Source: a virus (taxonomy: Duplodnaviria > Caudoviricetes). Taken from it: a stretch of DNA of 61,507 nucleotides. Location of the stretch: positions 1 to 61,507 of IMG/VR virus record IMGVR_UViG_3300048835_000959. One strand, given 5' to 3'. The notes beneath the pieces were generated by a model. It was not told where the DNA came from. It ran no database searches and worked only from the letters and a program-made list of their open reading frames with translations. Of this stretch, positions 5,189-59,936 are shown one piece after another; the first letter of the stretch is position 1, and every line of letters begins with the position of its first letter. The position numbers and the translations under genes were made by a program.

Positions 5189-7584
5189 GCTGCCACCTCC
5201 ACAACTTCACCGTCGTACCCACCCGATCCACTCGGTGGATCGCCAACTTCGGGACAATCACTTTCAAGGAGCTGCCAACCGCAGGACCAGATCCATGTTG
5301 TATTGCAGGGCTCGCTCGTGCTGCTGTCGGAAGTTGGAGGTTCGCTTGGCGGTTCGCTATCGGAGTGACTGACGCTCGGACGATCCGACTCGCTGGTCGA
5401 TTGATCATGGGAGTCGCTTATTGATGGATCATTTGAATCGCTTGTCGATGGCGATGAGTCACTGCCTGAGCCGCTCGTTGATCCGCTTCCAGAGCCGCTT
5501 TGCGAATAGCTGCCAGAACCGCTGGTGGAATGGCTGGTCGACCAGGGAACGCTGTAGCTTTCACTTTCGCTGTAGCTGGGGCGGTCGCTGCTGGATCGGC
5601 TTTCTGAACCATCGCTGCTCGATGGCTCGCTCGTTGATCGCGATTCACTACCTGATTCGCTTTCCGACTGGCTTTGCGATTCGCTTTGCGATTCACTCTC
5701 GCTCTGGCTTGAGTCGCTGGCCGACACTGAACCACTGCCGCTTGAATAACTTGGCTGCGAGTAGCTCGGCCATGAGTAACTCGGCACCGAACGGCTATCG
5801 CTACTTGGATCTTGAGAATCCGATTGGCTTTCCGACTGGCTCTCGCTTTCCGAACTGATCGATTCGCTTTCGGAGCTGTCGGATTGGCTGCTGTCGCTTC
5901 CACTCGAATCGCTCTGGCTGGAATCGCTACCACTGGATGATCCCGAGTAGCTTGCGCTGTACGACTGGCTGTAACTGGCGTCGCTCGAATACGATTCGCT
6001 TGTTCGTGATGAATCTGAATCGCTAGATTCAGACTGGCTGGATTTTGATTCACTTGATTCGGACTGACTCGACTCCGATTTACTCGAGCTCGATCCACTG
6101 GAGCCGCTGGACTGGCTCGAATGACTCGAATCAGAGCTTGATCCGCTCGATGAGTGACTGCTTGAGTAAGAGGGCTCACTCAGTGAAATAGATTGGCTCG
6201 AGTCGCTAGAAGATCCGCTGGATGCAGATGATCCAGAACTTGATGATTGGCTTGAGCTTGAATGCGACGAGCTCGAGCCGGATGAACTCGAAAGACTAGA
6301 CGAACTCGATCCAGAACTTGAGACCGACGGTGCCGAGTAGGATTGCGACGAACTTGAATGCTCGCTCGACGATGAGCTCATCGAAGACTGGCTACTCGAT
6401 GAGCTGATGGAACTGGATGAACTCGATGAGACGCTCGAACTGCTCGACGAGGATGGACTCGATGAGCTACTGCCGGAGCTGCTGCTGGAGCTGCTCGACG
6501 ATGACGATGAACTCGAAGAGCTAGACGAGCTGCTGCTGGAACTTGAACTACTGCTTCCCTCGCAGCAGCGGCAGCCGATGGTTAGGTAAGCGCTGGTGTC
6601 CTCGTGGAAATGACAAACAATCTGTTGGCTTGTCAGAAGGGCATAGTCACAGACATTGTAGACCGCGACCTTGACTCCGATTGGTGCCCAGACACCGTTG
6701 GCATATCGCAGTTCACGAGCCATGCCCCAACTCTTAGCCTTGAGCCTCGAGACGGGTTTGCAGAGCAACGTTTGTTTTGGCGGGTCGATGATCCAGGAAT
6801 GATTGCCGTCGTAGGTGACGCTGAGATACTGACCATCGTCGTAATTGGAAACCGGACCTCGAATGCGCTGGGCGCTCGGGTTGCGAGCGATGATGCGAAC
6901 GCCTTGTCCATTCGGTTTCAGGACCGGCTCAATGGTGCCAGCATCGTCGAGCTGAAAGAGGTCGCAGTTGGCGGAACCGGTCGCAAGACCAGAGCGACCA
7001 GGGATACCACCGCTGGGAACCTTCACCAGGAACGCAGGATCGGCCGGCTTACCAACGCGAACGACAGCCCACTGGACGCCCGTTTGATTCGCATCGCGTC
7101 GCCATAGGATCTGGGCGGAGCCGCTGGGCGTTGACTGGAGTGTCGTACCTCCCGAGTCGGCTACATCAGCATATTGATGCCAGGTCTCTTGAACGTTCAC
7201 ACGGGCGGCGACGACGCCTGAGAATACCACGCGACCGACTTTGTCCTCGGCGATCGGCTCGATAGCTACTCCGAATCGTCCCATATGCTCGTCGACGATG
7301 GGACGAACCGACTGGATCGTCGCATCACGTACGAAACGAGCGAGTGCTGTATTGTCGACGTCTGGATCGCCCAGTGGGGCGTTAAAACCGACGATTCCAC
7401 CGATGGGCACAGTGGTCGCACTTTGATAGTGAACGCGAACGGTGGCAGCGTCGCGAACGTGGGTGCGGTTTCCTGCGCCACCTGCGAGTCGGTCACGCGC
7501 AACTGCATCGGCGGCCGCCAGCAGACGGTTGTATTCCGCTGCGGTGATATTGAGTCTTTCGCCTGGCCGAACTCGCCTTGCCAT
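5185..7584 (-). CDS. Putative distal tail/fibre protein with a ~415 aa Ser-rich mucin-like region
   Basis: Position two genes after the tape measure; beta-rich N-terminal ~345 aa, then poly-Ser/Ser-rich tract (about 5310-6555), short Cys/Trp tail. Confidence 0.65.
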   Translation of the reverse strand: MARRVRPGERLNITAAEYNRLLAAADAVARDRLAGGAGNRTHVRDAATVRVHYQSATTVPIGGIVGFNAPLGDPDVDNTALARFVRDATIQSVRPIVDEHMGRFGVAIEPIAEDKVGRVVFSGVVAARVNVQETWHQYADVADSGGTTLQSTPSGSAQILWRRDANQTGVQWAVVRVGKPADPAFLVKVPSGGIPGRSGLATGSANCDLFQLDDAGTIEPVLKPNGQGVRIIARNPSAQRIRGPVSNYDDGQYLSVTYDGNHSWIIDPPKQTLLCKPVSRLKAKSWGMARELRYANGVWAPIGVKVAVYNVCDYALLTSQQIVCHFHEDTSAYLTIGCRCCEGSSSSSSSSSSSSSSSSSSSSSSSSSSSGSSSSSPSSSSSSSVSSSSSSSISSSSSQSSMSSSSSEHSSSSQSYSAPSVSSSGSSSSSLSSSSGSSSSHSSSSQSSSSGSSASSGSSSDSSQSISLSEPSYSSSHSSSGSSSDSSHSSQSSGSSGSSSSKSESSQSESSESKSSQSESSDSDSSRTSESYSSDASYSQSYSASYSGSSSGSDSSQSDSSGSDSSQSDSSESESISSESESQSESQSDSQDPSSDSRSVPSYSWPSYSQPSYSSGSGSVSASDSSQSESESQSESQSQSESESGSESRSTSEPSSSDGSESRSSSDRPSYSESESYSVPWSTSHSTSGSGSYSQSGSGSGSTSGSGSDSSPSTSDSNDPSISDSHDQSTSESDRPSVSHSDSEPPSEPPTSDSSTSEPCNTTWIWSCGWQLLESDCPEVGDPPSGSGGYDGEVVEVAA

Positions 7585-20817: not shown

Positions 20818-23085
20818 TTATTTGCGTCGGTTCTGCTGGATGTCCTTAAAACTCAAGCGTTTTGGGGATATTTCGCGTGTTGACTCCGTTCCAAATAAAA
20901 TTGCTCCCTGCATCGAAGCCGCAACGGCGGAACCGACGAGACAATCGAACCAGTGGTTGTCCGGCTGCTCGGGGCGCTGCTTCCATTCGTCGACGCTCCG
21001 GCCGCGCGCTTCCGTCTTGACGAAGTACTCCGAGGTCAGATGTTCGGCGAGCATGCGATGGGTTTCGGCGTTCGTTCCGAAGAGCGAGATGCAGCCGCGA
21101 TCGCCCATGGAAACACGAAGTCGAGCGTTGATGAACGACTTCCACCAGTTCGTGTCGTAGACTACGTGGCGGATGGCCCGCTTACCGGCGACGTTTGGGA
21201 TACGCCAGTTGAGCCCGACGCGATCACCTGGCCGGCGTCGGTACTCGCTGAATGGCAAACTCGAAGCACCGACGAATCGACCGTGGCTGGGAATGATCAC
21301 AGCGGCGTGCATGGACTGCCGGCAGAACTGGTAGACCACATCTGTCGATTGCCCCCAGTTGGCATCGATCAAGCAGCGACCGACACGCATCGCTGCACCA
21401 TCATCGCGTTGCCACTCGCGATCGAGCAGTTTCGTTGTCAGAGATTCGAGGCCGGCGTAGATCGATCCCTCGAGTCCGGTACCAGTCGCTTCGGAGCTCA
21501 GCGTCTGGCGAGCCTCGCGCAGCGTAAAGTACGGACGCTGCTGGTCAGGGTAGCAACCATAGTCGATCACATAACCCGTGAAGTCGTCCTCCCAAGCGGT
21601 GACCACATAGAACAGGAGCTTTTGCTGGACGTCGATGAAGGCCGTGAGATGGTTTGCACCTATCGATACCAAGCCGCGATCCATGCGGTTGATCTTGCTG
21701 GAGACCTCTTCTGGTTTGAGCATCCCATCGACAACGGTCTCCGCCGGCAAAGGTTGGTTCTGATATTCGGCGAAGAACGCTGCTTCGTCTTGTAGCTTGA
21801 GATTCATCGCGTGCTGAATCGCCGAGAGTTCGTCGTAGTTGAACCGCTCTTGCCAAGCGATGACCGCGCCTTCGTCCATCGCCACCTGGTTCTGTCGATA
21901 GAACTCGGTGGCCGCTTCACCACCATCACCGCCACGCATTCCTTCGGCGCGGATCTCGGCGTAACGCTCCCACAGCGTTTCGTTCTTGGGGAACGCGTAA
22001 ACCATCTTGGTGCGCTCGCCATTCCATTCCGGATGGCGATTACGATCGAGAATATTGTCGGCCATATCACCCGGACGAATCACGGTGCAGGGCATGATGC
22101 CCGAGATCTTCTTGCCCGGCCCGGCCAAGCCAAGGACTGCGCCGGCGAGAATGCTTTCGCGATTCGCGCATTGCGAAAGCGAACGAGCGCTCTCATCCGT
22201 TTGCGGGTCATCGAGTACCACGAGACTCGGACGTACTGTTCGGCCATCGGGACGTTTGAACTTCATACCTCGGATGCGGCCGGTTAGGCCGGCGACCTTG
22301 ATAATCGCTCCGCTGGCACTGCTACCCTCGATCGTTGGTAAGACGACTTCTTTTGCGGTCCAACCGATCTGCGTGCGTTTGCCTTTATAGAGTTGACCGT
22401 TCGCGCGATTCGAAATCCCATCGAGGGCTTGGATCGGAAAACAAACCTCGGGGAAGTCGGCCAAAAGCAGCTCGTTGCTATCGAGTTCGGTTTTGATTGA
22501 GTCGAGCATATCACACGCATGCCCTTCATCGCTGCCGATCAAACACACAAAGTTGCGATGCCCATATAGCACTGCCCAGATACATGCGACCTCGGCAATT
22601 GAACTCTTGCCGCTACCTCGAGCCATCGCGAGCGCAAACAAACCGCCATGCACAACCGCTTGCTCGATCTTGTTGATGACCTTGATATGGTCCGGCGACC
22701 AAGCGAGATGAAACGTCAACGGGAAATACGTTTCACAAAAGTATCGGAAGTCGCGAGATGCGCGATCTTTGCGATCTGCGTTATCGACCTCCGGCAGTTC
22801 ACCAATGTCACGACCTGCAAGTGCAAGCGCGGCGTTACGAGCACGCGCTCGTTCTTTCATCGCATCGTACGGATCGACACCGCTCGTCGTACGAGGCGTA
22901 TGACGTACGACATGCATCCAGGCACAATAGCGAAGCAAATCGACGGTCTTGTTATCACCGATGCGTGCGCCGGCGCGTTGACGATGGCGATACAACTGCC
23001 GCTCGCTGATCACCTCGCCTAGCGGCGTCGAGTTCAGCAGCCGGCACAGTTCGCTGGGTTTTAGTTTCCTCGGATCACTCGCCAC
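20818..23085 (-). CDS. Terminase large subunit (lambda gpA-like) with N-terminal HTH-like extension
   Basis: ARGSGKS Walker A, VLDD Walker B, FIDVQ and DNHWFDC nuclease motifs; AAGGAG RBS before GTG 23085. Confidence 0.9.
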   Translation of the reverse strand: MASDPRKLKPSELCRLLNSTPLGEVISERQLYRHRQRAGARIGDNKTVDLLRYCAWMHVVRHTPRTTSGVDPYDAMKERARARNAALALAGRDIGELPEVDNADRKDRASRDFRYFCETYFPLTFHLAWSPDHIKVINKIEQAVVHGGLFALAMARGSGKSSIAEVACIWAVLYGHRNFVCLIGSDEGHACDMLDSIKTELDSNELLLADFPEVCFPIQALDGISNRANGQLYKGKRTQIGWTAKEVVLPTIEGSSASGAIIKVAGLTGRIRGMKFKRPDGRTVRPSLVVLDDPQTDESARSLSQCANRESILAGAVLGLAGPGKKISGIMPCTVIRPGDMADNILDRNRHPEWNGERTKMVYAFPKNETLWERYAEIRAEGMRGGDGGEAATEFYRQNQVAMDEGAVIAWQERFNYDELSAIQHAMNLKLQDEAAFFAEYQNQPLPAETVVDGMLKPEEVSSKINRMDRGLVSIGANHLTAFIDVQQKLLFYVVTAWEDDFTGYVIDYGCYPDQQRPYFTLREARQTLSSEATGTGLEGSIYAGLESLTTKLLDREWQRDDGAAMRVGRCLIDANWGQSTDVVYQFCRQSMHAAVIIPSHGRFVGASSLPFSEYRRRPGDRVGLNWRIPNVAGKRAIRHVVYDTNWWKSFINARLRVSMGDRGCISLFGTNAETHRMLAEHLTSEYFVKTEARGRSVDEWKQRPEQPDNHWFDCLVGSAVAASMQGAILFGTESTREISPKRLSFKDIQQNRRK

Positions 23086-23284
23086 GTCCCATCTCCTTCG
23101 CTTGCCACGCGCTGTAGTGCACGAGGTTGATTGTGCCATCGGCGTTCACCGGCGCACCGCTTTGTATGTCGAGGCGGATCTTCTCGGGATCGATCCGCTC
23201 TCGGTATGCGGCCGCAAGTAGCTTCGCCGCTTGCTCGACCGGAAGCCTCGTCGGATCGACCTGGCCCGTTCCTTCACTCATCAC
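23075..23284 (-). CDS. Putative terminase small subunit / Nu1-like DNA-binding protein
   Basis: 69 aa directly upstream of and overlapping TerL; GAP..DGTINL..Y.AW winged-HTH-like pattern. Confidence 0.55.
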   Translation of the reverse strand: MMSEGTGQVDPTRLPVEQAAKLLAAAYRERIDPEKIRLDIQSGAPVNADGTINLVHYSAWQAKEMGRGE

Positions 23285-23462
23285 ATTCCTCCGTGACTTG
23301 GCATCTCGAAACGTGGGGCCACCGTTTGCGCACGGTCGCGTTTTGACCGCATGTTCGCCTGGTTATGCGGAGCATGTTTGGACGCGACGGTGGCGTAATG
23401 TTGGGGCACCGGTGGCCTCTCAAAAAAACATGGAAATTACTGGGAAAAACATGCAAGACGTC

Positions 23463-23504
23463 GCTTGAGGTTCCTCGAAACGCATGGCTCATGTGTGTCA
23501 TCGC
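23463..23504 (+). promoter_or_regulatory. Island repeat copy 1 (GCTTGA-N14-CATGGCTCATGTGTGTCATCGC)
   Basis: Direct repeat upstream of the amidoligase gene. Confidence 0.75.
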
Positions 23505-23556
23505 GACGCAGAAAGCGCGACGCAAAACACACCTCGAACCACACAGGAACGCAACG

Positions 23557-24414
23557 ATGAACGCAAACGAAATCGCCTTCGGAATCGAATTCGAAACCAC
23601 CCTCCCCGGCACCGACAACACACCGATCGGACCCTACCACAACGGATACCAAGTACCCTGGCTGCCAACCGGATGGAAAGCAGAACGAGACGGAAGCATC
23701 CGACCCGAGAACGCCAGCCGCAAAGGTTGCGAGTTTGTAAGCCCAATACTCAAAGGGGTTGAAGGCGTACAGCAGATCGAGAACGCGATCGACCAGATCA
23801 ACGCTCGCGGGGGCCGAGTAAATTCGAGCTGCGGGCTGCACATAACGGTTAGCTGGTACGGAGACGCAGCCGCCTTGGCAAGATTGATTTCCTTGGTCGG
23901 CAACCACGAACGAGCGATCTACGCCTCGACCGGAACCCGCAAACGCGAACAGATGATGTACGCCAAGCGGATCAAACAATACGGCAACAAAGACAACGCC
24001 AAGAGCCGATGTGAATCGGATCGCTACCACCTGCTGAACCTCACCCACCTGACCCGCGGCAAGAACCGAATCGAATTTCGGGCCTTCGGCGGAACGCTCA
24101 ACAAGACCAAGGTGGTCGGATACCTGATGATGGTTTTGGGTTTGGTTGAACTCGCCCTCAATACCAAACGCTGCAGCGAATGGGACTACATCAAGAAGGA
24201 AGGCACCAAGAGTTGTTGGGACCGCCCCGGGGCCGGCCTGGGCGAAACCGAAATCAACCGATTGTTCTACCGACTCGGATGGACCAAGGGTTGGTACAAG
24301 GGTGCTCTTCGCGACAAGGTCTACGGAGAGATCGCCAGCGAAACCAAACCGGAATGGAAAAAGATCAAGACCAAACTCCTTGAGCTCGCCCGCAAATACG
24401 ACCGCGCGGCCTAA
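23557..24414 (+). CDS. Putative amidoligase (COOH-NH2 ligase) family enzyme
   Basis: FGIEFE, DGSI, EFVSPIL, SCGLHI, RYHLLN and IEFRAF motifs. Confidence 0.85.
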   Translation: MNANEIAFGIEFETTLPGTDNTPIGPYHNGYQVPWLPTGWKAERDGSIRPENASRKGCEFVSPILKGVEGVQQIENAIDQINARGGRVNSSCGLHITVSWYGDAAALARLISLVGNHERAIYASTGTRKREQMMYAKRIKQYGNKDNAKSRCESDRYHLLNLTHLTRGKNRIEFRAFGGTLNKTKVVGYLMMVLGLVELALNTKRCSEWDYIKKEGTKSCWDRPGAGLGETEINRLFYRLGWTKGWYKGALRDKVYGEIASETKPEWKKIKTKLLELARKYDRAA

Positions 24415-24580
24415 ACCACAACCACATAGAACGCCGCGAACGGAATCGCGGCGTTCTTTCGTTTGGTCGCGACAGTTGCGCACTGTCGCGTTCTTACGAG
24501 CATCTTCGACCAAGTAACCGACATCCAGAACGACGCGACACGGGCGAACGTTGCGAACCGTGGGGCGTTCCCAGGAACAT
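24412..24580 (+). repeat. ~170 bp structured intergenic element, copy A
   Basis: Colinear similarity to 25522-25710. Confidence 0.7.
24428..24464 (+). terminator. Probable intrinsic terminator hairpin
   Basis: 12-bp stem AGAACGCCGCGA/TCGCGGCGTTCT with 6-nt loop, followed by TTCGTTT, just after the amidoligase stop. Confidence 0.55.
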
Positions 24581-24609
24581 GCAAAAACATTCAGAAAAGC
24601 TGCTGGAAT

Positions 24610-24653
24610 CGGCTTGAGGTTATTCGAACCGCATGGCTCATGTGTGTCATCAC
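24610..24653 (+). promoter_or_regulatory. Island repeat copy 2
   Basis: CGGCTTGAGGTTATTCGAACCGCATGGCTCATGTGTGTCATCAC. Confidence 0.75.
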
Positions 24654-24693
24654 GTAAACGATTCCATTCCCTTTCCGAAACGGAGAAGCACAG

Positions 24694-24987
24694 ATGAACG
24701 ACACAACCACCACCAGCGCCGAACAAGCGATCAAGGACGAACTGCGACGCCTCGGATGGATGATCCCCGACGCACAACGCCGCCTCAACGAGCATGCCCA
24801 AACGATCCTTCGGAGGGCCGAACGAGCGGTCAAGGACATGGAAGCCATGATGGCCAACCAACCCTGCAGTATGAGCTGGGTGGATTTCGCTGAAAGCGAT
24901 CTGCGAAACGCGCGCGAGGCGAAGGCCCAACTCGAGTTCCTCTACCAACAACGAACCATGCTCGAATTCTTTTTGAAGAAGGACTAG
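24694..24987 (+). CDS. Small helical hypothetical protein
   Basis: GGAG RBS; preceded by the repeat. Confidence 0.75.
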   Translation: MNDTTTTSAEQAIKDELRRLGWMIPDAQRRLNEHAQTILRRAERAVKDMEAMMANQPCSMSWVDFAESDLRNAREAKAQLEFLYQQRTMLEFFLKKD

Positions 24988-25182
24988 CGAACGACGCGAA
25001 TTCGCCGGCGGCCACGAGCTGCCGGCGAAGTTCTCGCGAGATTCTTTGGGACCTCGTTCCACCTCTTTTGCATAGATAGTTAATAGAGGGCCAACATACT
25101 CGTCCTCCCAATACGCGAACTTCCGCGGCAGCCAACACGCGGAAAAGAAAGCTGCAGAATCTTTCCCGAATTCTCGCATGCT

Positions 25183-25226
25183 CGGCTTGAGGTTATCGAA
25201 ACCGCATGGCTCATGTGTGTCATCGC
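25183..25226 (+). promoter_or_regulatory. Island repeat copy 3
   Basis: CGGCTTGAGGTTATCGAAACCGCATGGCTCATGTGTGTCATCGC. Confidence 0.75.
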
Positions 25227-25266
25227 GTAAACGATTCAAACCTTTTTCCGAAACGGAGACACAAAC

Positions 25267-25524
25267 ATGACCAACGCAAACAACCCACACGCAGCTACGG
25301 ACGCAACCCTTCGCCAGATCTTCAAAACGATGGACGCCCACCAAGCCCAAGAGATCCGCGAAGCCTACTACAAGGCAATCGAGGGTTTGATGACCTTGGC
25401 AGAAACCCTCGAGATCGCCGACGCGCAACAAACACCCAGCGCCGGCCCGCTTCTCACCGAACACTTCAACGCGGTCCAAGCCCTGGACGCAATGAAGAAC
25501 AGCCGCCTCGGAAAGATCCTCTAA
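25267..25524 (+). CDS. Small hypothetical protein
   Basis: GGAG RBS; preceded by the repeat. Confidence 0.75.
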   Translation: MTNANNPHAATDATLRQIFKTMDAHQAQEIREAYYKAIEGLMTLAETLEIADAQQTPSAGPLLTEHFNAVQALDAMKNSRLGKIL

Positions 25525-25710
25525 ACCACAGACCAGCGGAATGCCACGGACGCCGCGAACGGAATCGCGGCGTTCTTCCGCTTGGTCGCGACACTCGCCC
25601 ACTGTCGCGTTCTTCTTAGCACCTTCGACCAAGTACCCAACATTCGAAACATCGCAACACGGGCCAACGTCGGTGCCCGTAAGGCATCCCGAGAAACATG
25701 GAAGAACATG
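25522..25710 (+). repeat. ~170 bp structured intergenic element, copy B
   Basis: Shares ACGCCGCGAACGGAATCGCGGCGTTCTT, TTGGTCGCGACA..CACTGTCGCGTTCTT and TTCGACCAAGTA with copy A. Confidence 0.7.
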
Positions 25711-25728
25711 GGAAAAAGCTGCTGAAAG

Positions 25729-25772
25729 CGGCTTGCTGCCGGTTGAACCGCATGGCTCATGTGTGTCATCGC
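25729..25772 (+). promoter_or_regulatory. Island repeat copy 4
   Basis: CGGCTTGCTGCCGGTTGAACCGCATGGCTCATGTGTGTCATCGC. Confidence 0.75.
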
Positions 25773-25815
25773 CCAGCGACCAACCGCCTTCACCACGCAA
25801 GAGGAGAACAAACCG

Positions 25816-26091
25816 ATGGCCCGAACTAACGCCAGGCACACTGCTATCAGAACCGCCTTCAAACAAATGCCGCGCGCAACTGCGCTGGACCTCTGTGAGG
25901 ACTACCGCGAAGTGGTCACAAGGTTGAAACGACTGGCTGACAACTTGGCCGGCGCGTTCGCGGTAGCGAGCGGAGGTTCGGCCCGCGCCCTGGAAGCAGA
26001 ACTCCGCATGTTTGAAGAAGCTATCGACGTCCTTTCCGGCAGCATGTTGCCCGAAGCGATCGACGAATGTTTGCCTTCCAAAGAATGCTGA
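25816..26091 (+). CDS. Small hypothetical protein
   Basis: GAGGAG RBS before ATG 25816. Confidence 0.7.
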   Translation: MARTNARHTAIRTAFKQMPRATALDLCEDYREVVTRLKRLADNLAGAFAVASGGSARALEAELRMFEEAIDVLSGSMLPEAIDECLPSKEC

Positions 26092-26118
26092 AAAAACCTG
26101 CTGAAAACATTGAAAGGA

Positions 26119-26162
26119 CGGCTTGAGGTTATCCGAACCGCATGGCTCATGTGTGTTATCGC
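26119..26162 (+). promoter_or_regulatory. Island repeat copy 5
   Basis: CGGCTTGAGGTTATCCGAACCGCATGGCTCATGTGTGTTATCGC. Confidence 0.75.
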
Positions 26163-26199
26163 ATAACCAATTTTCATTCACCCAAACGGAGAACCAAAC

Positions 26200-26475
26200 A
26201 TGAATCTCGACACCCTGATCGAAATCCTCAACGACTACCGCGAAGAGTTCGGAGGCGACGCCGAAGTGCGGCTGATGACCCAGCAGAACTGGCCTTTCGA
26301 GAACCGCATCTGCGGCGTGACCAGCGGACGCGACATGAACGAAGCGGACGATGAGGATGCGGACGCCGACGACGATGACCAAGACGTCGCCGACGACCAC
26401 ACGGTCTACATCGTCGAAGGTGGCCAGATCTGCTACGGCAGCAAGCGAGCTTGGGAAACATGTCGCGATAGCTGA
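26200..26475 (+). CDS. Small acidic hypothetical protein
   Basis: GGAG RBS; AEVRLMTQQNWPFE..VYIVEGGQ..YGSKRAW with an Asp-rich loop. Confidence 0.8.
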   Translation: MNLDTLIEILNDYREEFGGDAEVRLMTQQNWPFENRICGVTSGRDMNEADDEDADADDDDQDVADDHTVYIVEGGQICYGSKRAWETCRDS

Positions 26476-26536
26476 CCGCAACACGCCGATGCGCCGGGAG
26501 AAAGGTTCTGGAAAACCTTCAGAATCTTTCCCCCTT

Positions 26537-26580
26537 CGGCTTGATGCGGTTTGAACCGCATGGCTCATGTGTGTCATCGC
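26537..26580 (+). promoter_or_regulatory. Island repeat copy 6
   Basis: CGGCTTGATGCGGTTTGAACCGCATGGCTCATGTGTGTCATCGC. Confidence 0.75.
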
Positions 26581-26619
26581 ATACGACATATCAAACACGA
26601 ACAAACGGAGATCAACACG

Positions 26620-26868
26620 ATGCCAACCATGACCAACCGACCACGCCTGACCTCGGCCCAATTCCTCGGAGCGCACCGACGAGCGCTCGAGACGATCAGC
26701 GACCTGTACGCAGCGATCGAAGAGATGCCGATCCTTGCCGCTGCAGACCCAACGACCATGAAACGGTTCTTCGACGAGTTGGCTGATGTGCAAGCCACAG
26801 CCGCCAAGCTCGCCCAGCATTTCCGCACGCAGGTATGCACCGAAGAAAAGATTTCGAATTCCTTTTGA
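26620..26868 (+). CDS. Small hypothetical protein
   Basis: GGAG RBS before ATG 26620. Confidence 0.7.
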   Translation: MPTMTNRPRLTSAQFLGAHRRALETISDLYAAIEEMPILAAADPTTMKRFFDELADVQATAAKLAQHFRTQVCTEEKISNSF

Positions 26869-26871
26869 ATC

Positions 26872-26915
26872 CGGCTTGATGCGGTTCAAACCGCATGGCT
26901 CATGTGTGTTAACGC
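26872..26915 (+). promoter_or_regulatory. Island repeat copy 7
   Basis: CGGCTTGATGCGGTTCAAACCGCATGGCTCATGTGTGTTAACGC. Confidence 0.75.
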
Positions 26916-26952
26916 GAAAACGATTCACCAACCAAACAACGGAGACCAGTAG

Positions 26953-27267
26953 ATGACCCAACACGACCTCGACCTGACGATCACCAAGATCAGCAATCGC
27001 AACCGCGGTGCTGGCGGGTCTTGGGTGCAAGGCAAGATCAACGACGAATACCGATTCGATGCTTTGGTCTTCGCCGAACACGCAGAACACGAATCGTACG
27101 AATTGAACCAAAGCAAGATTTCGAAGCTTTGGGTTCAACGCCTGGCCGACCGCAAAGTGATGTTCAACTTCGATCGCGGGTTGGATGTGCCAGCGGTCAA
27201 TACAGAGGTGCAGGTGATAGTCGACTTTCTCTGCGAGGGATTGTCGGACTTGGTCTTTGGTCAATAA
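26953..27267 (+). CDS. Conserved-looking phage hypothetical protein
   Basis: GGAG RBS; W..G.I..YRF.ALVF..S.ISKL..NFDRG.D pattern. Confidence 0.8.
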   Translation: MTQHDLDLTITKISNRNRGAGGSWVQGKINDEYRFDALVFAEHAEHESYELNQSKISKLWVQRLADRKVMFNFDRGLDVPAVNTEVQVIVDFLCEGLSDLVFGQ

Positions 27268-27360
27268 GCCGAAACGCAGCACGGACGCGCGTAGTCGATC
27301 GGTGGTTCGATCGGCCTGACGATGGCAGCCAACCACGAACATAGATTTGGAGATACCAAG

Positions 27361-27930
27361 ATGAAGAAGGCAGAAGTAAAGATCGGTGGCAAGTACTATG
27401 CGAACGTTTCTGGCAATCGCTGCGAGATTCGGATCGATGCCGAAAAGCCTCGGGGCGGTTGGGACGCAACTAACCTCGCGACAGGTAAGAAGATTCTTAT
27501 CAAGAGCGCCCAACGCCTGCAGGGCGAAGTGGGTGCGAAACGCGGACGCGCGAAGGTCACCACCGAAGGCAACGTAACCGTTGTCGAGAACGAACCGGTG
27601 ACCGTCGAAACAATCGGAGGCGAATCGTCCACAGCGGTTGCGGTTCTCAAGAAGCCACGTAAGGCAAAGGCGGCATCCAACGAGACCGCCGACGCCGGCG
27701 AGAAGCGATTGAGCTGCGTCGCTGCGGCCTTGAAGGTTCTCAGGGAATCGAGCGAACCGATGAACGCACAAGAGTTGATCACGGCGATGGAAGCCAAGGG
27801 CTATTGGACCAGCCCCGGTGGCAAGACTCCCCACGCGACCTTGTACAGCGCGATCCTCCGCGACCTGGCCAAGGGCGATGACAGCAAGTTCGTGAAGACC
27901 GAACGCGGACGTTTCACCGCTCGAGGCTAG
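27361..27930 (+). CDS. HARE-HTH-like winged-helix domain protein
   Basis: C-terminal AALKVL..PMNAQEL..GKTPHATLYSAILRD..F.K.ERGRF; GGAG RBS. Confidence 0.75.
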   Translation: MKKAEVKIGGKYYANVSGNRCEIRIDAEKPRGGWDATNLATGKKILIKSAQRLQGEVGAKRGRAKVTTEGNVTVVENEPVTVETIGGESSTAVAVLKKPRKAKAASNETADAGEKRLSCVAAALKVLRESSEPMNAQELITAMEAKGYWTSPGGKTPHATLYSAILRDLAKGDDSKFVKTERGRFTARG

Positions 27931-27942
27931 GGGAACGAACCG

Positions 27943-28176
27943 GTGAAACACTTTTACGATTTGCGAACGGTGGATGACCTGGCCGAAGGCGAGATCGCAA
28001 CGCCAGAGCCAGGCATCACCTACGACCTTCGAACGATTAACAATCGCAAGCTCGACGTAGGCAGCGTGGTGGATGTGATCCGCCAGGGCCCGACGCTGTT
28101 CGCCCGAACCACCAGCGGAGACTCGATCGCAGTCTCCGGCCACGGCGCTGCCATCCTGGTGCCGCACGACTTGTAG
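27943..28176 (+). CDS. Small hypothetical protein
   Basis: GTG start 12 nt after the previous stop. Confidence 0.6.
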   Translation: MKHFYDLRTVDDLAEGEIATPEPGITYDLRTINNRKLDVGSVVDVIRQGPTLFARTTSGDSIAVSGHGAAILVPHDL

Positions 28177-28353
28177 ACAAGCCCGAAGCACGGAACGCTT
28201 CCCACCAATCGCCCCACGTTTACACCGTGTGGGCGTTGTCTCGTTGATGCGAACATAAGCCCAGCGCGCAATACAACGCGACACGTCGCGAAATCGCGGT
28301 TCGCCGGCGCAGCCACATGTTTGGAAGAAATTCGCAAAACATGCTCGCATGTT

Positions 28354-28390
28354 GGCTTGATGTTTTTGCGATTCGCTGGCTGACTGTTGA
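28354..28390 (+). promoter_or_regulatory. Degenerate island repeat copy 8
   Basis: GGCTTGA and TGGCT at the same spacing as in copies 1-7, upstream of the last three genes. Confidence 0.45.
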
Positions 28391-28428
28391 GGATCGTCTT
28401 TCGTTTCTCCAACAACTAGGAACCAATC

Positions 28429-28644
28429 ATGGCCAAACCAACTCTTGAGCCAGCAGCTCCCTACGAGAACCTGCACCTCGTAGCACGCGACTACCTCGAT
28501 CGACTGCGTCAATCGCTCGACGCCTTGCAACCACCAGACGACCCAGCACTGCGTTGGCGGAACGTTCACACGATGGCCCAGGTCAACGCACGCTTGGCTC
28601 AAGCCGGCGAACTGCTCGACAAACTCAACGCAACCACCAAATGA
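28429..28644 (+). CDS. Small hypothetical protein
   Basis: AGGA RBS; helical composition. Confidence 0.7.
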   Translation: MAKPTLEPAAPYENLHLVARDYLDRLRQSLDALQPPDDPALRWRNVHTMAQVNARLAQAGELLDKLNATTK

Positions 28645-28656
28645 AACAAGGAACCC

Positions 28657-28887
28657 ATGACTATGCAGACACGATTGAAGAAAGGCGATCGCATCCGTTT
28701 GGTATCGATGCCGCAAGATCCAGATCCAATCCCCGTTGGATCGCTGGGGACCGTCGTTGAAGTCCACGAACACCGCGACTGGACGCAGGTCGATGTCGAT
28801 TGGGACAACGGCCGCTCCCTCATGCTGACGATGCCCGACGATTGTGTCGCCATCGTCGCACCCAACCACCACGAACCATCGAAGTAA
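28657..28887 (+). CDS. DUF4314-like small beta-barrel protein
   Basis: GDRIRLVSM.QDPDPIPVG..GTV..V.WDNGRSL pattern. Confidence 0.75.
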   Translation: MTMQTRLKKGDRIRLVSMPQDPDPIPVGSLGTVVEVHEHRDWTQVDVDWDNGRSLMLTMPDDCVAIVAPNHHEPSK

Positions 28888-28899
28888 GGAAGCCAACCT

Positions 28900-29217
28900 A
28901 TGTCCACAAGAGCAACGATTGCCTGCAAGCAAGAAGACGGTCGCTACGCAGCGATCTACCTTCACTTCGATGGCTACCAAGACCACGCCGGCAGAGTCCT
29001 CAAAGAACATTACACATCGATCGAGTCGGCACGAACGCTGGTCGCAGGCGGCGATATTCGCTCGCTCGCTAACGACGGAACGCCCGAACGATTCACCGAC
29101 GGTAATCGCACCGTTGTCATGCCGACGCGTGCAGCTCTCCACGAGTTCGCGAGGAACTGCGGCACCGAGTATGTTTACGTTTTCGAGGAAGACGCTTGGC
29201 ATAGTCATAAGCTTTGA
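28900..29217 (+). CDS. Conserved-looking phage hypothetical protein
   Basis: MSTRATI..IYLHFDGY..G..L..HY..GDI..EYVYVF pattern. Confidence 0.8.
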   Translation: MSTRATIACKQEDGRYAAIYLHFDGYQDHAGRVLKEHYTSIESARTLVAGGDIRSLANDGTPERFTDGNRTVVMPTRAALHEFARNCGTEYVYVFEEDAWHSHKL

Positions 29218-29234
29218 CGTAATGAATTGTCCCA

Positions 29235-29831
29235 CTACTTTCTATCGCTAGATGGTTTTCGCACTGATTGCACAATGTAAGTTGCGTTCTTTGGCTCTTT
29301 CTTGTCCCATCTCCGGTGACATGGGACACACAGCCATCGGACATCGAGCGGTCTGTCATAGTCATAGTGGGCACCTTCAATTTGCCGATCCGATCCACCG
29401 CATTCTTCACATTCGGTGGGGCGAGCTATCTTTCCGGTCTGAACGTGATAACGAAGTAGACCTTGCGCCCGTCTTGCTTTAGCGGTGGTTTTGCGAATCG
29501 TCATTCTTCCAGTAGATGCCGCTGCATACTTGCAATTCTTCGAACAGAACTTTCGTTTCAAGTGGTCAGCAGGCCCGAAAAGTTGTCCGCAGTTCTTGCA
29601 AACAAGGAATGTTGGTGCACGAAGTAGTTGACCACACAACTCCGAGCACGCTTTCCGGCCTGACTTCCCAACAAAAAGGCGATTGCAAAACTTGCATTGC
29701 CGTATGGCAACGCCGTGGCAGTCCTTGCACCTCGATGCTAGTTTGTTGGTGCCCGATCGATGGAACCGAGTAATCGGTAGTTCCCTTCGACAGAACCTAC
29801 AACGTTTCAAACCGGTTTGAGCGATGTCCAC
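29235..29831 (-). CDS. Zn-finger / HNH-like endonuclease
   Basis: Multiple CxxC motifs; CEECG..EGAHYDY..V.WLC..CH. Confidence 0.7.
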   Translation of the reverse strand: MDIAQTGLKRCRFCRRELPITRFHRSGTNKLASRCKDCHGVAIRQCKFCNRLFVGKSGRKACSELCGQLLRAPTFLVCKNCGQLFGPADHLKRKFCSKNCKYAAASTGRMTIRKTTAKARRAQGLLRYHVQTGKIARPTECEECGGSDRQIEGAHYDYDRPLDVRWLCVPCHRRWDKKEPKNATYIVQSVRKPSSDRK

Positions 29832-31186
29832 GTTGCACCATCCCTTTCACGCACAGGTTCAGTCCCAGTGAACTTAAAGTAGCGCTGGCAGATAACGTCT
29901 GAGTACAACGAATCAAGCTCCATCAGGAATGCGTTGCGTCCAGACTGTTCAGCGCCGATTAGCGTTGAGCCGCTACCTCCGAAAAGATCGAGCACGTTTT
30001 CACCTTGGACCGATGAGTACTGCATCGCGCGGATCGCTAACTCAACGGGCTTCTCCGTCAAGTGGATCATCGACTGTGGATTAACCTTCTTGACCTGCCA
30101 TAGGTCCGTCGCATTCTTGGGCCCGTAGTACTTATGCCCGGCTCCTTCTTTCCAGCCGTAGAACGCCCATTCATGTGCCCCCATGAAATCTTTTCGCGTG
30201 AGTACTGGATGCTGTTTGTCCCAGATGATGGATTGCGAGAAGTACAACCCATGCTTCTTAAGCACTGGTGGATAGTTACCGCAGTTTGCGTAACCGCCCC
30301 AGATGTAGAAACAGCGACCTGGTAGCAAGACGCGTGCAATGTTTCCGAACCAATCGTCAAGCAACTGATCAAAAGCCTCGTCGCTAACGAAGTCATTTGC
30401 TAATGGACGATCTTTCGCACGAAGCTTTTTGTGCGTCGCCGCGTGCTTCGGTTTGCCAGTCTCATGATCGACACCGAATGAAGCAGCGTTTCCTTGACCA
30501 CCTTTGAGTCTCGATGCAGCTCCATCGTTCGTGAACGACGACAGGCCGGCGGCGATTGCGTTGTTCGATCGCGGTTCAACCTTCACGTTGTAAGGCGGAT
30601 CTGTATTGACGAGGTGGATGGCAGCGCCGGCCAGCAAACGATCCAGGTCTGCCGGCGATGAGGAGTTGCCACAAAGCAATCGATGGTTACCGAGGATCCA
30701 AAGATCGCCGGGTTGAGTGACAGCTTCGTCTGGCGGCTCAGGGATCTCGTCCGGATCGGTCAAGCCTTCGTTGACGCCGGTATCCATCAGCTTCGCAAGC
30801 TCTTCAGCATTGAATCCGAGGAGCCCTAGATCGTAGTTCGCTTCCTGCAACGCCGACAACTCGATCGGCAACAGATCGTAATTCCATTCCGCGATCTCAG
30901 CGGTCTTGTTGTCGGCGATGCGATAAGCACGCACCTGCTCTGGTGTGAGGTGCGTCGCGACAACGACCGGCACTCGCTCGAGGCCGAGTTTTTGTGCGGC
31001 CTTCAATCGCGTATGGCCGACGATGATGACGCTGTCGTTATCGACAACAATCGGTTGTGAGAAACCAAACTCCTTGATCGATGCTGCGACTGCGTCAACG
31101 GCTTTATCGTTGTTGCGAGGGTTGTTTTCATAAGGTCGAACGCGATCAAGCGTCCACATTTCAATCTGCAAGGCTGTGGTTGTCAT
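29807..31186 (-). CDS. ParB-like N-terminal domain fused to an N6/N4 DNA methyltransferase
   Basis: PYENNPR..GHTRLKAA..ADNK (ParBc); TDPPY, EKPVEL and VLDLFGGSGST motifs. Confidence 0.9.
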   Translation of the reverse strand: MTTTALQIEMWTLDRVRPYENNPRNNDKAVDAVAASIKEFGFSQPIVVDNDSVIIVGHTRLKAAQKLGLERVPVVVATHLTPEQVRAYRIADNKTAEIAEWNYDLLPIELSALQEANYDLGLLGFNAEELAKLMDTGVNEGLTDPDEIPEPPDEAVTQPGDLWILGNHRLLCGNSSSPADLDRLLAGAAIHLVNTDPPYNVKVEPRSNNAIAAGLSSFTNDGAASRLKGGQGNAASFGVDHETGKPKHAATHKKLRAKDRPLANDFVSDEAFDQLLDDWFGNIARVLLPGRCFYIWGGYANCGNYPPVLKKHGLYFSQSIIWDKQHPVLTRKDFMGAHEWAFYGWKEGAGHKYYGPKNATDLWQVKKVNPQSMIHLTEKPVELAIRAMQYSSVQGENVLDLFGGSGSTLIGAEQSGRNAFLMELDSLYSDVICQRYFKFTGTEPVRERDGATWTSLKPV

Positions 31187-45665: not shown

Positions 45666-46751
45666 CTAATCTACGAGCATGATGGAATTTGAAAGCAAAA
45701 ACGACTTGAGTGCATCAAGGGTAATATAGGGTGCGCAGGTACCACCGTAGAGTGATGAAAATCTGTCCCATCTGCTTAAAATTCTAGCGCGGACCTTCTC
45801 TGCCATTGCTAGATTTTCACACTCAAGCGCAATTACACAGTCAGACAATACGATGGTTTGTGCGCAGTCGTAAATCGCACATTTCTTCGTTGCTGGTGAT
45901 CCAACACGTGTGAGCAAAACTGCTGGACCACGAACCGCTCGCGTATCAATCTTCACTGAGCGCTGATACTGGTTAACTTCATTATCCACGATATCAGTGC
46001 TGTGGATGAAAGGGAACCTGCGTCCGGCTAGACCATTTTCGGCTCTGTAAACGGGTATGCACCCCCGAACTACTTTCACGAAAAGATGATCTTCGCCACG
46101 CCGACGAACTTGTTGGCAATCAATATTGGGAGTGGTCTGTACACTGTTGGCGAGTCGACGGAATCGAACAACTACAGTGGAAGCCGAGCAGTCAGGAAAC
46201 GTATTATTCGAGTATCTTCCGATTTCATAGTAGTTTGCAAATCTCCGAATCTCTTCGAGAATCTTGGCATCCTTCCGGCTACTCAAACACGATGCGGGAA
46301 GTATCGCGACAATTTCTCCTCCGGTCCGCAAAAACTTGATTGCTGTGAAAATGAAAGCCATGGCACGACTACAGGTGACTTCGCCAGATTCGGTCTTGAC
46401 TGACAAAGCTCTGCCACCGCGACCACTGAAAGGCGGATTCAGCAAAACTACATCGCACTTCCCCAACAACTCTCTAAATCTTTTAGAGGCATTCGTAGAA
46501 CGATCGTTCAAAAAATCGCATCTTGAATAGGCTGAAATTCGTTCATCTGTCGCTAACCTTGATAAACATGCGAAATCTATATCATTGCCAAAAGTGAAGC
46601 AATCTGGCCATCGTGAACGTGCTGCGACTAGCAGATCGCCATGACCAGCGGCAAAATCAGCTACAATCTCAACTTTCCGTACCCTGACAGCGTTAATTGC
46701 TGCTGCTGCTAGTTCCATCGGCGTGAAAAATTGGTCCTTCATCCGTGGCAT
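45666..46751 (-). CDS. N6-adenine DNA methyltransferase
   Basis: QFFTP, DFAAGHGDLL and LNPPF motifs; TRD-like C-terminus. Confidence 0.8.
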   Translation of the reverse strand: MPRMKDQFFTPMELAAAAINAVRVRKVEIVADFAAGHGDLLVAARSRWPDCFTFGNDIDFACLSRLATDERISAYSRCDFLNDRSTNASKRFRELLGKCDVVLLNPPFSGRGGRALSVKTESGEVTCSRAMAFIFTAIKFLRTGGEIVAILPASCLSSRKDAKILEEIRRFANYYEIGRYSNNTFPDCSASTVVVRFRRLANSVQTTPNIDCQQVRRRGEDHLFVKVVRGCIPVYRAENGLAGRRFPFIHSTDIVDNEVNQYQRSVKIDTRAVRGPAVLLTRVGSPATKKCAIYDCAQTIVLSDCVIALECENLAMAEKVRARILSRWDRFSSLYGGTCAPYITLDALKSFLLSNSIMLVD

Positions 46752-47671
46752 ACCAATTGTGTTACTTCGTAAACATGGAGACGTTTGATTCCTTCTGTTC
46801 GCTCTGCCTTCCGAACCGGATGATCGTATACGATCTCGACTTGTTCAGGATACTGCAATGCAGAGATGACCGCTGCCAGCGATTGAGGCTTTGTTCCTAT
46901 AGGTGCAAGCGCGATACTCCGATTCTTGTGCTCATAACGCAATTGGTTTATGACATTTAAGGTAGCAAACGGACAGCTTGCGGGAGCAAAGATTACTTTT
47001 CTCCATGCCTGGCTCTCTCTCAATGCGGTACGATTTGCCCAGTAAGTAATGAATGGAAATTCGGCACGAAATCCTGGAACTCCAACTATTGGAAAAATCA
47101 GTTGTCCAGAAGGTTCAAGCTGATTTATCAAGTATTGAAGGCGGGTCCCTTCAAATCCAAGCAGCGGAGCAAAGACACCTGCATTACGGTCACGCCGGAA
47201 TCGGGCGAAACCGGGGAGCGGACGAATGCCTTCGATCTTTTCGCTGAGATCATAGATGACATTCTGAGTTGGCCGGGGATTCATTCGATAGTCATCTGGC
47301 TCAACATAAACCACTCGTACTCTTTTTCCGTCCGTATTCTTCAAACCTCGAAGCAACGCTGCCCAAGTGCTGTGCCGCAATCCGGTAATATCGAGATATA
47401 GAACCTTAGACTCTACCGCTTGCCAAAACGCCGTCAGCTGTGACAAGCTTCGCAACTGAATGACGCCACCCGCTCCTGAAAACTCAATCTCATCCGCAGC
47501 CTCCCGCAGTACACGGTAGAACTGAACATTGCGGCATCCATGCTCCCATTGTTCACCATGTCTACTTCGCTTCTCAACCGATACTCCAGCGACATACGCA
47601 CTGCCTGGCTCGGGACAGAAGTCAGCTACGGACTCAAATGTTGTCGTTAGGGCGGCGGTGCTATCCATCAT
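46739..47671 (-). CDS. Hypothetical protein of the PRTase/ATPase cassette
   Basis: LDITG, LGFEG.R and APIGTKP motifs; overlaps both neighbours. Confidence 0.65.
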   Translation of the reverse strand: MMDSTAALTTTFESVADFCPEPGSAYVAGVSVEKRSRHGEQWEHGCRNVQFYRVLREAADEIEFSGAGGVIQLRSLSQLTAFWQAVESKVLYLDITGLRHSTWAALLRGLKNTDGKRVRVVYVEPDDYRMNPRPTQNVIYDLSEKIEGIRPLPGFARFRRDRNAGVFAPLLGFEGTRLQYLINQLEPSGQLIFPIVGVPGFRAEFPFITYWANRTALRESQAWRKVIFAPASCPFATLNVINQLRYEHKNRSIALAPIGTKPQSLAAVISALQYPEQVEIVYDHPVRKAERTEGIKRLHVYEVTQLVCHG

Positions 47672-53785: not shown

Positions 53786-53875
53786 AGGGTATTTGTCCTC
53801 GATGGCTGTCTGGCATTGTGTAAGGTGGAACTGTCGATGATTTCTTGTTAGTTGCTCCGCTTGGGTATGGAAAGC

Positions 53876-59534: not shown

Positions 59535-59936
59535 TCAGTCCTTTTGGTTTTCCAATAGCGCAACCTGCTTTTTCCAGCATTTTTCGCTTGCTACTCTTTG
59601 CAGCGTACGAAGGTCTAGTTGTTCTGGAAAGCAAGGTGTAAATAAGAGCGATTCTTGTATCTCAGGTGCTAAGAGCCGTAGGTTCATGATCTGCGTAACA
59701 CGGGCTCTTGTCACGTGCCCGAGGCGGGCAAGGTCAGCATAGTCGGCGACGACGCCTTCCCTGATTAGATCCTCGAAGTGTATCGCAAGAGCCATGTAGC
59801 GCGAGATGCGAAGTATGCGTTCGAGCGCTGGTTTGGGCTCGTCCGATGGGGCTGCCCCTTCGACGATTCGCTTCTTGGCTCCACGGCCGCGTTGCTTGAT
59901 GGAGAACTGAAAGTCGACGCTTACTGGCTTGCTCAT
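59535..59936 (-). CDS. Recombinase-associated small HTH protein
   Basis: DYADLARLGHVTRARVTQIMNL..LAPEIQE; ATGA overlap with the recombinase. Confidence 0.7.
   Translation of the reverse strand: MSKPVSVDFQFSIKQRGRGAKKRIVEGAAPSDEPKPALERILRISRYMALAIHFEDLIREGVVADYADLARLGHVTRARVTQIMNLRLLAPEIQESLLFTPCFPEQLDLRTLQRVASEKCWKKQVALLENQKD

Follow-up and report, generated by a model that had tools for sequence, protein, structure and literature searches.

An antisense reading frame of 1,932 codons kept open beneath twelve plus-strand genes of a Pirellulales phage: a candidate translational bridge

Why should the strand opposite a dozen phage genes stay free of stop codons for 5.8 kb? The question is raised by the complete virus record IMGVR_UViG_3300048835_000959 (61,507 bp, analysed over its whole length and called the window below), which represents a temperate phage of Pirellulales. 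An island of 12 plus-strand genes in this phage lies opposite a single open reading frame (ORF) on the minus strand, at positions 23437-29235, which starts with GTG, ends with TAA, comprises 1,932 codons and covers all 12 genes as well as the spacers between them. A preliminary description of the window, made from its letters alone, proposed that selection acts on the translatability of this giant antisense ORF and not on its protein, and that ribosomes escort a late messenger across the oppositely oriented island. Our analysis supports the view that selection keeps the antisense frame translatable; the pattern of stop avoidance, its persistence at near-saturated synonymous sites in relatives, the lack of periodicity in the minus frame and the operon-type junctions with the neighbouring genes all point this way. 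The earlier interpretation as a whole is partly supported.

The geometry of the island is exactly as first described. The frame of the giant ORF holds its terminal stop only, and the other two minus frames hold 44 and 74 stops. All 12 plus-strand ORFs (g01 to g12 along the plus strand) start at 1 mod 3, and every one of the 11 gaps between them (279, 279, 291, 108, 144, 84, 93, 12, 252, 12 and 12 nt) is a multiple of 3. The island also carries seven copies of a promoter-like repeat, none of which stands in the phase that would create an antisense stop: in the product of the giant ORF six copies read THEPC and one reads THMSH. Just one of the three phases is forbidden for the repeat, because its two TCA triplets, 9 nt apart, share a phase, and the phasing of the repeats taken alone is weak evidence ((2/3)^7, or ~0.06).

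Far stronger evidence comes from the codons themselves. In this register a minus-strand stop appears as TTA, CTA or TCA in a plus-strand gene, and these three codons are found 0 times among the 1,353 island codons, compared to 24.6 expected from the synonymous usage of the backbone genes and the leucine and serine content of the island (P0 ~3e-12). The backbone genes use them at 2.4% (324 of 13,344 codons). CTA is missing from 85 CTN codons and TCA from 30 TCN codons of the island, while GCA, CCA, GTA, GGA and CGA make up 14-37% of their codon families, as they do in the backbone. When the antisense-stop triplets are counted by phase, the island coding sequence gives 0/48/35, and the spacers (1,698 nt), where no plus-strand translation takes place, give 0/24/9. 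A first-order Markov null model of the spacers has a mean of 15.0 antisense stops, and not one of 5,000 simulations was free of them (Poisson P0 3e-7). The phage provides an internal control in its two other plus-strand genes, which hold 9 TTA, CTA or TCA codons in 451 and 9 in 291, and the longest stop-free stretch antisense to the backbone genes is 323 codons. The earlier statement that codon bias cannot explain the open frame in the intergenic codons holds. Codon usage, the other NNA codons and the spacer phases all disagree with a compositional shadow ORF, and the avoidance is explicable only by a process that reads the minus strand in threes.

To follow the frame in relatives, the 17-nt core of the repeat was located in 76 stretches of viral contigs and 115 stretches of bacterial genome contigs (191 loci). 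Multi-copy matches in the bacterial contigs fall mostly in Pirellulales (Pirellula, Rhodopirellula, Novipirellula, Stieleria, Rubripirellula, Aporhodopirellula and Bremerella), and single-copy matches in other phyla look like chance. A blastn search of the island in 'distant' mode against the phage GenBank collection gave no match, and hence no annotated relative. In 61 of the 192 sequences formed by the 191 loci and the window, 1,000 or more antisense codons without a stop run over the repeat, and the longest such stretches reach 2,399 (L018, up to 7.2 kb), 2,275 (L070) and 2,202 codons (L052). Across the relatives the frame ranges from ~500 to 2,399 codons, and the long stretches contain 4-14 in-register plus-strand ORFs drawn from a common family pool in varying number and order. 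In the 44 loci (the window included) that have both the methyltransferase gene upstream of the frame and the small-terminase-like (TerS-like) gene downstream of it, these genes are 1.4-7.2 kb apart; the span is fully covered by one stop-free stretch in nine loci and by two in 13 more.

With the 12 island proteins and three backbone proteins as queries, all 191 loci were searched for homologues by tblastn, and only distinct DNA sequences were kept. The homologues of g01-g09 (14-97 sequences per gene, with identities down to 32-51%, or 78% for g04) contain 0-1.6 antisense-stop codons per 1,000, compared to 12.4 for the methyltransferase, 15.6 for the large terminase (TerL) and 23.6 for the TerS-like ORF at the same loci. 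The third-position difference in the island genes is 0.47-0.61 at 50-70% amino-acid identity, so that forbidden codons had ample chance to arise and were removed. Neighbouring genes also tend to share a frame: this is the case in 188 of 252 distinct arrangements of adjacent pair and distance, which count arrangements and not independent events, against one third expected. Of the 92 loci in which four or more island genes can be recognised, 53 have all of them in a single frame, namely 30 of the 38 loci on viral contigs and 23 of the 54 on genome contigs. The claim that cassettes can be gained or lost only in multiples of 3 thus stands as a strong tendency and fails as a rule, since the other 39 islands are mixed and some frames are split. 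The expectation that relatives with other gene content would keep an open frame with an unconserved product was borne out with the same reservation.

Is the protein itself under selection? In the island genes, substitutions are most frequent at plus-strand third positions, which are the first positions of the minus frame (0.304 vs 0.085 and 0.117). Spacer substitutions fall on all three positions of the minus frame alike (0.173/0.152/0.156), without codon periodicity, and by these measures no purifying selection on the amino acids of the antisense product is seen. The product is biased as the preliminary description had it (V 11.9, L 9.4, G 9.3 and R 7.9%) and is further marked by 4.1% Cys, compared to 1.4% in the backbone, and by 0.6% Met; Val, Cys, Phe and His are enriched, and Met, Tyr, Lys and Ile are depleted. 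This composition is that of antisense sequence and is unnatural for a protein. No Pfam family matched the product. Gene callers have nevertheless predicted the giant ORF in ten database clusters of 1,306-2,308 aa, of which the four that are named are all 'hypothetical protein'. The plus-strand genes are real, as indicated by four Pfam matches, one PHROG match and a divergence that peaks at their third codon positions. The converse arrangement, with the minus ORF as the real gene and the plus ORFs as its shadows, was considered and ruled out for the same reasons. With 1,932 codons lying over 12 genes, five of them with Pfam or PHROG support, the giant ORF is, by its position, an antisense ORF that overlaps established genes.

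The island differs in base composition as well. Its plus strand (23000-29000) is T-poor, with an AT skew of +0.13 to +0.25 and 16% T in genes and 19% in spacers. A T-poor plus strand means less A on the minus strand and fewer mutations that yield antisense stops, and the T-poverty may be a secondary adaptation.

How is the giant frame seated between its minus-strand neighbours? This aspect is an addition beyond the first reading. On the 5' side, the in-frame start nearest to the stop of the preceding minus-strand gene lies -4 to +20 nt from that stop in 32 of the 45 distinct junctions. The preceding gene is either the methyltransferase or an inserted HNH or endonuclease gene, and the commonest form of the junction is the methyltransferase stop, a GAGG and then an ATG 19 nt past the stop. 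In relatives the giant ORF starts with a conserved ATG-ACT-ATG, to which the final His-Ser-His codons of g12 are complementary. In the window, the gene in this place is an inserted 198-aa, HNH-like endonuclease (29235-29831, minus strand; phrog_2340 endonuclease, 2e-20). As had been pointed out before, its TAG stop and the GTG with which the giant ORF starts overlap as TAGTG; the conserved ATG lies 27 nt further. Next to it stands the ParB-N/DNA methyltransferase (29807-31186, minus strand; Pfam N6_N4_Mtase 3e-23 and ParB_N 7e-9), the gene immediately upstream of the giant ORF in many relatives. With the TAGTG of the window and the 32 junctions described above, the giant frame has the start of a translationally coupled operon cistron.

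On the 3' side the neighbour is the TerS-like ORF of 68/69 aa (23075-23284, minus strand), which has a GGAGG Shine-Dalgarno sequence and lies directly before the large terminase. It is a putative small terminase by position only, and it has no PHROG match and no PDB sequence match (best E 0.52). Among stretches of at least 400 codons, with a TerS-like query that began at the window GTG, one codon before the conserved ATG, the stop of the giant frame overlaps the TerS-like start in 27 of 59 distinct junctions, 15 of which are 4-nt ATGA overlaps. Ten of the remaining frames end 61 nt before the TerS-like gene and the others 10 to ~230 nt before it. In one relative (L074) a 5-nt gap at the 5' end is combined with ATGA at the 3' end, and in a complete Pirellulaceae chromosome (L086) a 19-nt gap is combined with ATGA; in both, the giant frame exactly fills the space between its minus-strand neighbours.

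We therefore hypothesize that the minus frame is a translated 'bridge' cistron of the phage minus-strand operon, selected for uninterrupted translation and not for its polypeptide, and we consider this reading probable, if by no means assured. The opposing island of small, individually promoted plus-strand genes would sit inside an operon that has the replication genes, the ParB-methyltransferase and the HNH-like endonuclease upstream and the terminase, portal, capsid and tail genes downstream. Ribosomes that finish the upstream minus gene would re-start within a few nucleotides, cross the antisense side of the island and halt at or just before the TerS-like start. A ribosome trailing the RNA polymerase would block terminator hairpins and deprive Rho of naked RNA, while ribosome-covered antisense RNA would be kept from pairing with the island messengers, and minus-strand transcription could thereby reach the packaging and structural genes. 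The price paid by the island genes would be the loss of TTA, CTA and TCA codons, and that paid by the layout would be genes and spacers tied to a single phase, or to a small number of long blocks that each keep their phase, with spacers that lack those triplets in phase.

Some further points speak for this scheme. According to PMC5021804, coupled ribosomes prevent the formation of terminator hairpins and the loading of Rho. The Rho RNA-binding domain (Rho_RNA_bind) was above the cut-off in all three host genomes searched, with E ~1e-31. The HNH endonuclease of phage HK97 serves as a packaging accessory. In lactococcal phages, an HNH-type endonuclease beside the packaging genes is usually such an accessory (PMC12967558). 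If this were so here, the late unit would start upstream of the island, which would split it. The sequence statistics and the comparative anatomy lead us to infer translation of the frame, a minus transcript across the island and the kind of hazard that translation guards against. A further step is to regard the 'translational bridge' as a new type of element, that is, a cistron of thousands of codons whose product has no function, kept stop-free so that an operon can cross opposing genes; here we find the arguments on either side evenly balanced.

A number of observations weigh against this reading. The giant ORF of the window stops 152 nt before the TerS-like GTG and 155 nt before its conserved ATG, close to the ~150 nt first reported, and another lineage leaves 61 nt. 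Translational continuity in the window lineage would consequently need re-initiation in a second minus frame. A second stop-free frame of 115 codons (23274-23621, minus strand) does overlap the 3' end of the giant ORF, and its stop lies 8 nt into the TerS-like gene (ATGAGTGA geometry). It has in-frame starts at 23423 (TTG, 14 nt past the giant-ORF stop), 23375 (ATG) and 23333 (GTG), and in two relatives (L018 and L080) the giant ORF itself ends 8 nt inside the TerS-like gene in the same manner. The conserved 61-155 nt before the TerS-like gene could, on the other hand, hold an independent late promoter or a packaging site. Many 5' junctions are without a clear Shine-Dalgarno sequence, and since the TerS-like gene has its own strong GGAGG, coupling is not required for its translation. 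The Rho version of the mechanism is burdened by the composition of the minus RNA, which is G-rich and not C-rich (G 1,711 and C 1,543 of 5,799 nt), as the preliminary description had cautioned, and which does not make a good Rho substrate.

The relatives contribute further difficulties. The homologues of g10-g12, the genes at the upstream end of the frame, are less depleted in antisense-stop codons (3.3-8.7 per 1,000). This holds chiefly for the divergent relatives, whose long frame seems to start deeper within the island. In the 39 of 92 islands that are mixed in frame, the frames come in runs, e.g. 22222211, and in the divergent islands L091 (Stieleria) and L101 the frame is broken up into 3-4 pieces that overlap and measure 265-511 codons.

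Could antisense translation be selected because of what it does to the island, with access to the terminase genes playing no part? Ribosomes that hold the antisense RNA single-stranded might spare the early island messengers from destruction as duplexes, or ribosome-backed polymerases might prevail in head-on collisions and silence the island promoters late in infection. The evidence of stop avoidance and frame locking applies equally to this explanation; at least seven closely spaced promoter-like repeats fire against the minus direction, and both the strong ribosome-binding site of the TerS-like gene and the frames that end 61-155 nt short of it in several lineages agree with it. We consider it a live alternative but an unlikely one, because the commonest 3' geometry is the stop-start overlap with the TerS-like gene and because the frame regularly starts at the stop of the upstream gene, as is more readily expected of an operon that runs through than of a role confined to the island.

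The operon-like junctions, together with the gene-caller predictions in public assemblies, could also be read as signs of a functional protein, large, fast-evolving and of odd composition, such as a filler, a decoy or a virion-internal protein. Ordinary selection on a gene that overlaps 12 others would in that case keep the frame open. For P. aeruginosa, selection on antisense overlapping genes of 957 and 1,536 nt has been reported (PMC8850804). We regard a functional protein as distinctly improbable here: constraint at the amino-acid level is not seen, as the first positions of the minus frame are the most variable and the spacers are aperiodic; length and content shift with the cassettes; and the product, which has no Pfam family and an antisense-like composition, consists in part of translated promoter repeat.

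Finally, it is hardly credible that the frame is untranslated and open merely as a by-product of composition, codon bias, tRNA-related avoidance or cassette duplication, for although T is scarce on the plus strand (AT skew up to +0.25), third codon positions are C-rich (0.44 vs 0.32), parts of the spacers are repeats (D1-D3) and in-register antisense 'shadow' frames are long in GC-rich genomes, the avoidance affects a single phase in genes and spacers alike and spares other A-ending codons, all 11 gaps are multiples of 3, 53 of 92 islands are fully frame-locked, backbone antisense frames do not exceed 323 codons, and reading in threes across plus-strand stops is done by translation only; on phase-specificity, spacers and homologues these explanations are rejected and come close to being refuted.

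We now turn to the surroundings of the island. Almost all long ORFs of the window are on the minus strand, and the plus strand has only the island (23.4-29.2 kb) and two genes at 57.3-59.5 kb. Read on the minus strand from high coordinates downwards, a serine recombinase is followed by restriction/defence-type cargo, by a replication module (PD-(D/E)XK nuclease, AAA_24, RecD-like helicase and NrS-1-type primase-polymerase) and then by an HNH protein, the ParB-N/DNA methyltransferase and the 198-aa endonuclease. Beyond the island, at lower coordinates, lie the 68/69-aa ORF, a gpA-type large terminase (20818-23139, minus strand; Pfam GpA_nuclease, 4e-23), a lambda-family portal, and the capsid and tail genes. 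The defence-type cargo occupies 45666-56668 on the minus strand and includes an MmeI-family restriction-modification enzyme (53876-56668), an ORC-CDC6-like and PRTase-CE pair (47661-50458), a T5orf172/MUG113 protein and a DEAD/ResIII helicase. The large serine recombinase (59933-61507) has the final base of the record as its first, and the stop codon of a minus-strand ORF (1-852) falls on bases 1-3. Since ORF boundaries coincide with both ends, the record seems to be cut at gene boundaries, probably as an excised prophage.

The first island gene, g01 (23557-24414; all island genes are on the plus strand), encodes an amidoligase (Pfam Amidoligase_2, 1.3e-17). It is followed by five genes without assigned function: g02 (24694-24987, 97 aa, 34 distinct homologues), g03 (25267-25524, 85 aa, 83 homologues), g04 (25816-26091, 91 aa, 14 homologues), g05 (26200-26475, 91 aa, 97 homologues) and g06 (26620-26868, 82 aa, 24 homologues). 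Then come g07 (26953-27267), a DUF7678 protein (Pfam, 2e-16), and g08 (27361-27930), a HARE-HTH protein (Pfam, 4.9e-13). No function could be assigned to g09 (27943-28176, 77 aa, GTG start, 58 distinct homologues) and g10 (28429-28644, 71 aa, 52 homologues), while g11 (28657-28887) is a DUF4314 protein (Pfam, 1.1e-11) and g12 (28900-29217, 105 aa) matches phrog_1987 (5e-22). A GGAG-type site precedes most of the gene starts.

The seven exact copies of the 17-nt repeat core occur within the phage in the island only, where shuffled sequences would lead one to expect 0.18. They stand 60-75 nt ahead of seven gene starts, on the plus strand at 23482-23498 (75 nt ahead of the g01 start), 24631-24647, 25204-25220, 25750-25766, 26140-26156, 26558-26574 and 26893-26909, with spacings of 1149, 573, 546, 390, 418 and 335 nt; the sixth is the sole copy in the other permitted phase (THMSH). 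The core, with an upstream GGCTTGA-type box, is exactly conserved ahead of cassette starts across prophages of many Pirellulales genera, and we take its GAACC ... TCATCG layout to resemble that of ECF-sigma promoters. A consensus scan of the island gave 0 sigma-70-like promoters (2.3 expected), but it does not cover Planctomycetota promoter rules and is thus silent on a terminase promoter. The same scan found 9 terminator-like sites compared to 10.4 expected. The island has at least one strong terminator-like hairpin, of 12 pairs, after g01 (24428-24457, plus strand), and a minus transcript would have to pass it. A 221-nt spacer module, which consists of a terminator hairpin, a 9-bp hairpin and the promoter repeat, is duplicated with 80% identity at 24431-24651 and 25550-25770 (D3). 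By eye, the second hairpin of the module resembles a conserved minus-strand sequence just upstream of the TerS-like gene.

Some further observations concern the relatives. In L143 (~5423-5425) and L177 (~6450-6452, both in motif-oriented coordinates) a single in-frame stop splits the frame into 660+496 and 737+297 codons, respectively; such stops may be tolerated, or they may have arisen recently in prophages that are decaying. One complete Pirellulaceae chromosome holds at least three repeat-core stretches (L086, L125 and L140), two of them with antisense frames of 1,352 and 1,369 codons, which indicates that several related prophages coexist in one host. A census of indel lengths from blastn alignments was not used, because hundreds of 1-nt gaps appeared even within conserved genes and must be artefacts or compensating pairs; the frames of neighbouring genes were compared in its place.

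Sampled 31-mers of the island were found in 20 sequencing runs of 12 studies, at 40-50% in the contigs of 14 DNA runs and at 20-33% in six RNA libraries, and some stretches of the island seem to be conserved very widely. The DNA runs are labelled as wastewater, marine, wetland, lake, freshwater and unspecified metagenomes and the RNA libraries as soil, aquatic and biofloc; we make no habitat claim from these labels. Metatranscriptome contigs that match 21500-31000 at 85% or more number 655, 366, 232 and 84 in four runs of three studies and cover the terminase, the island and the methyltransferase. Being strandless, without a start or an end, and open to DNA carry-over, they allow no conclusion for or against a minus transcript.

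What would follow if the proposal is true? Selection could act on an ORF of ~2,000 codons purely for its translatability, and would in doing so determine, across the double helix, which codons a dozen unrelated genes may use, how they are spaced and in what phase they lie. The island would then be written in a hidden grammar of three forbidden codons, spacers in threes and phase-restricted promoters, and its cassettes would circulate among Pirellulales phages as pre-adapted, in-phase modules. Late transcripts that have to cross oppositely oriented cargo before the packaging genes would have a third answer beside antiterminator proteins and RNAs. If the principle is general, phase-specific depletion of TTA, CTA and TCA could detect antisense read-through translation in any genome from its sequence, and together with frame locking this signature would make antisense translation and operon continuity testable in uncultured phages. 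For annotation there would be a warning, in that the giant 'hypothetical proteins' and the small genes beneath them would both be real features, of different kinds.

How does the giant frame compare to known systems? The closest counterparts are the antisense overlapping genes of bacteria (reviewed in PMC7457138). The longest that we found in print, of 957 and 1,536 nt, are single ORFs in single genes of P. aeruginosa (PMC8850804), and they likewise run opposite established genes in the in-register frame and are kept open by selection. The giant frame is 4-5 times longer, with 5.8 kb here and up to 7.2 kb in L018. Unlike the known cases, it crosses at least 12 genes with their promoters, terminators and spacers, which it forces into one phase, and it does so without a sign of amino-acid selection. 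In searches at the level of titles and abstracts, which cannot prove absence in print, we came upon no account of an antisense frame that is kept free of stops through many genes and spacers, nor of a cistron selected only for its translation at such a scale. The 'shadow' ORFs of GC-rich genomes have the same frame relation, in which antisense stops equal sense TTA, CTA and TCA, but codon bias, which accounts for them, fails here, since the backbone does use these codons, other NNA codons are normal and the spacers comply.

With regard to translational coupling, the ATGA- and TGATG-type overlaps and the short gaps match ordinary operon junctions (on coupling see PMC5021804 and PMC7858274). Unlike the cistrons of known operons, which encode useful proteins, the bridge cistron seems to be a spacer, selected for nothing but the absence of stops. 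Phage late operons are known to cross obstacles with the help of antiterminator proteins or RNAs, such as Q and N of lambda and the put RNA of HK022. Processive antitermination thus has the same proposed job, to carry a long phage transcript through terminators and antisense regions to the packaging and structural genes; in contrast to it, the bridge would invoke neither an antiterminator protein nor an antiterminator RNA, and the obstacle itself would be made translatable. Among 21 backbone proteins scanned with Pfam no antiterminator came to light, although no search aimed at antiterminators was made. Leader peptides and upstream ORFs, in which translation and not the product controls Rho or attenuation, provide the nearest functional parallel, in that the act of translation is the function. 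They comprise tens of codons in a dedicated leader RNA, however, whereas the bridge would extend for ~2,000 codons over the genes of the opposite strand.

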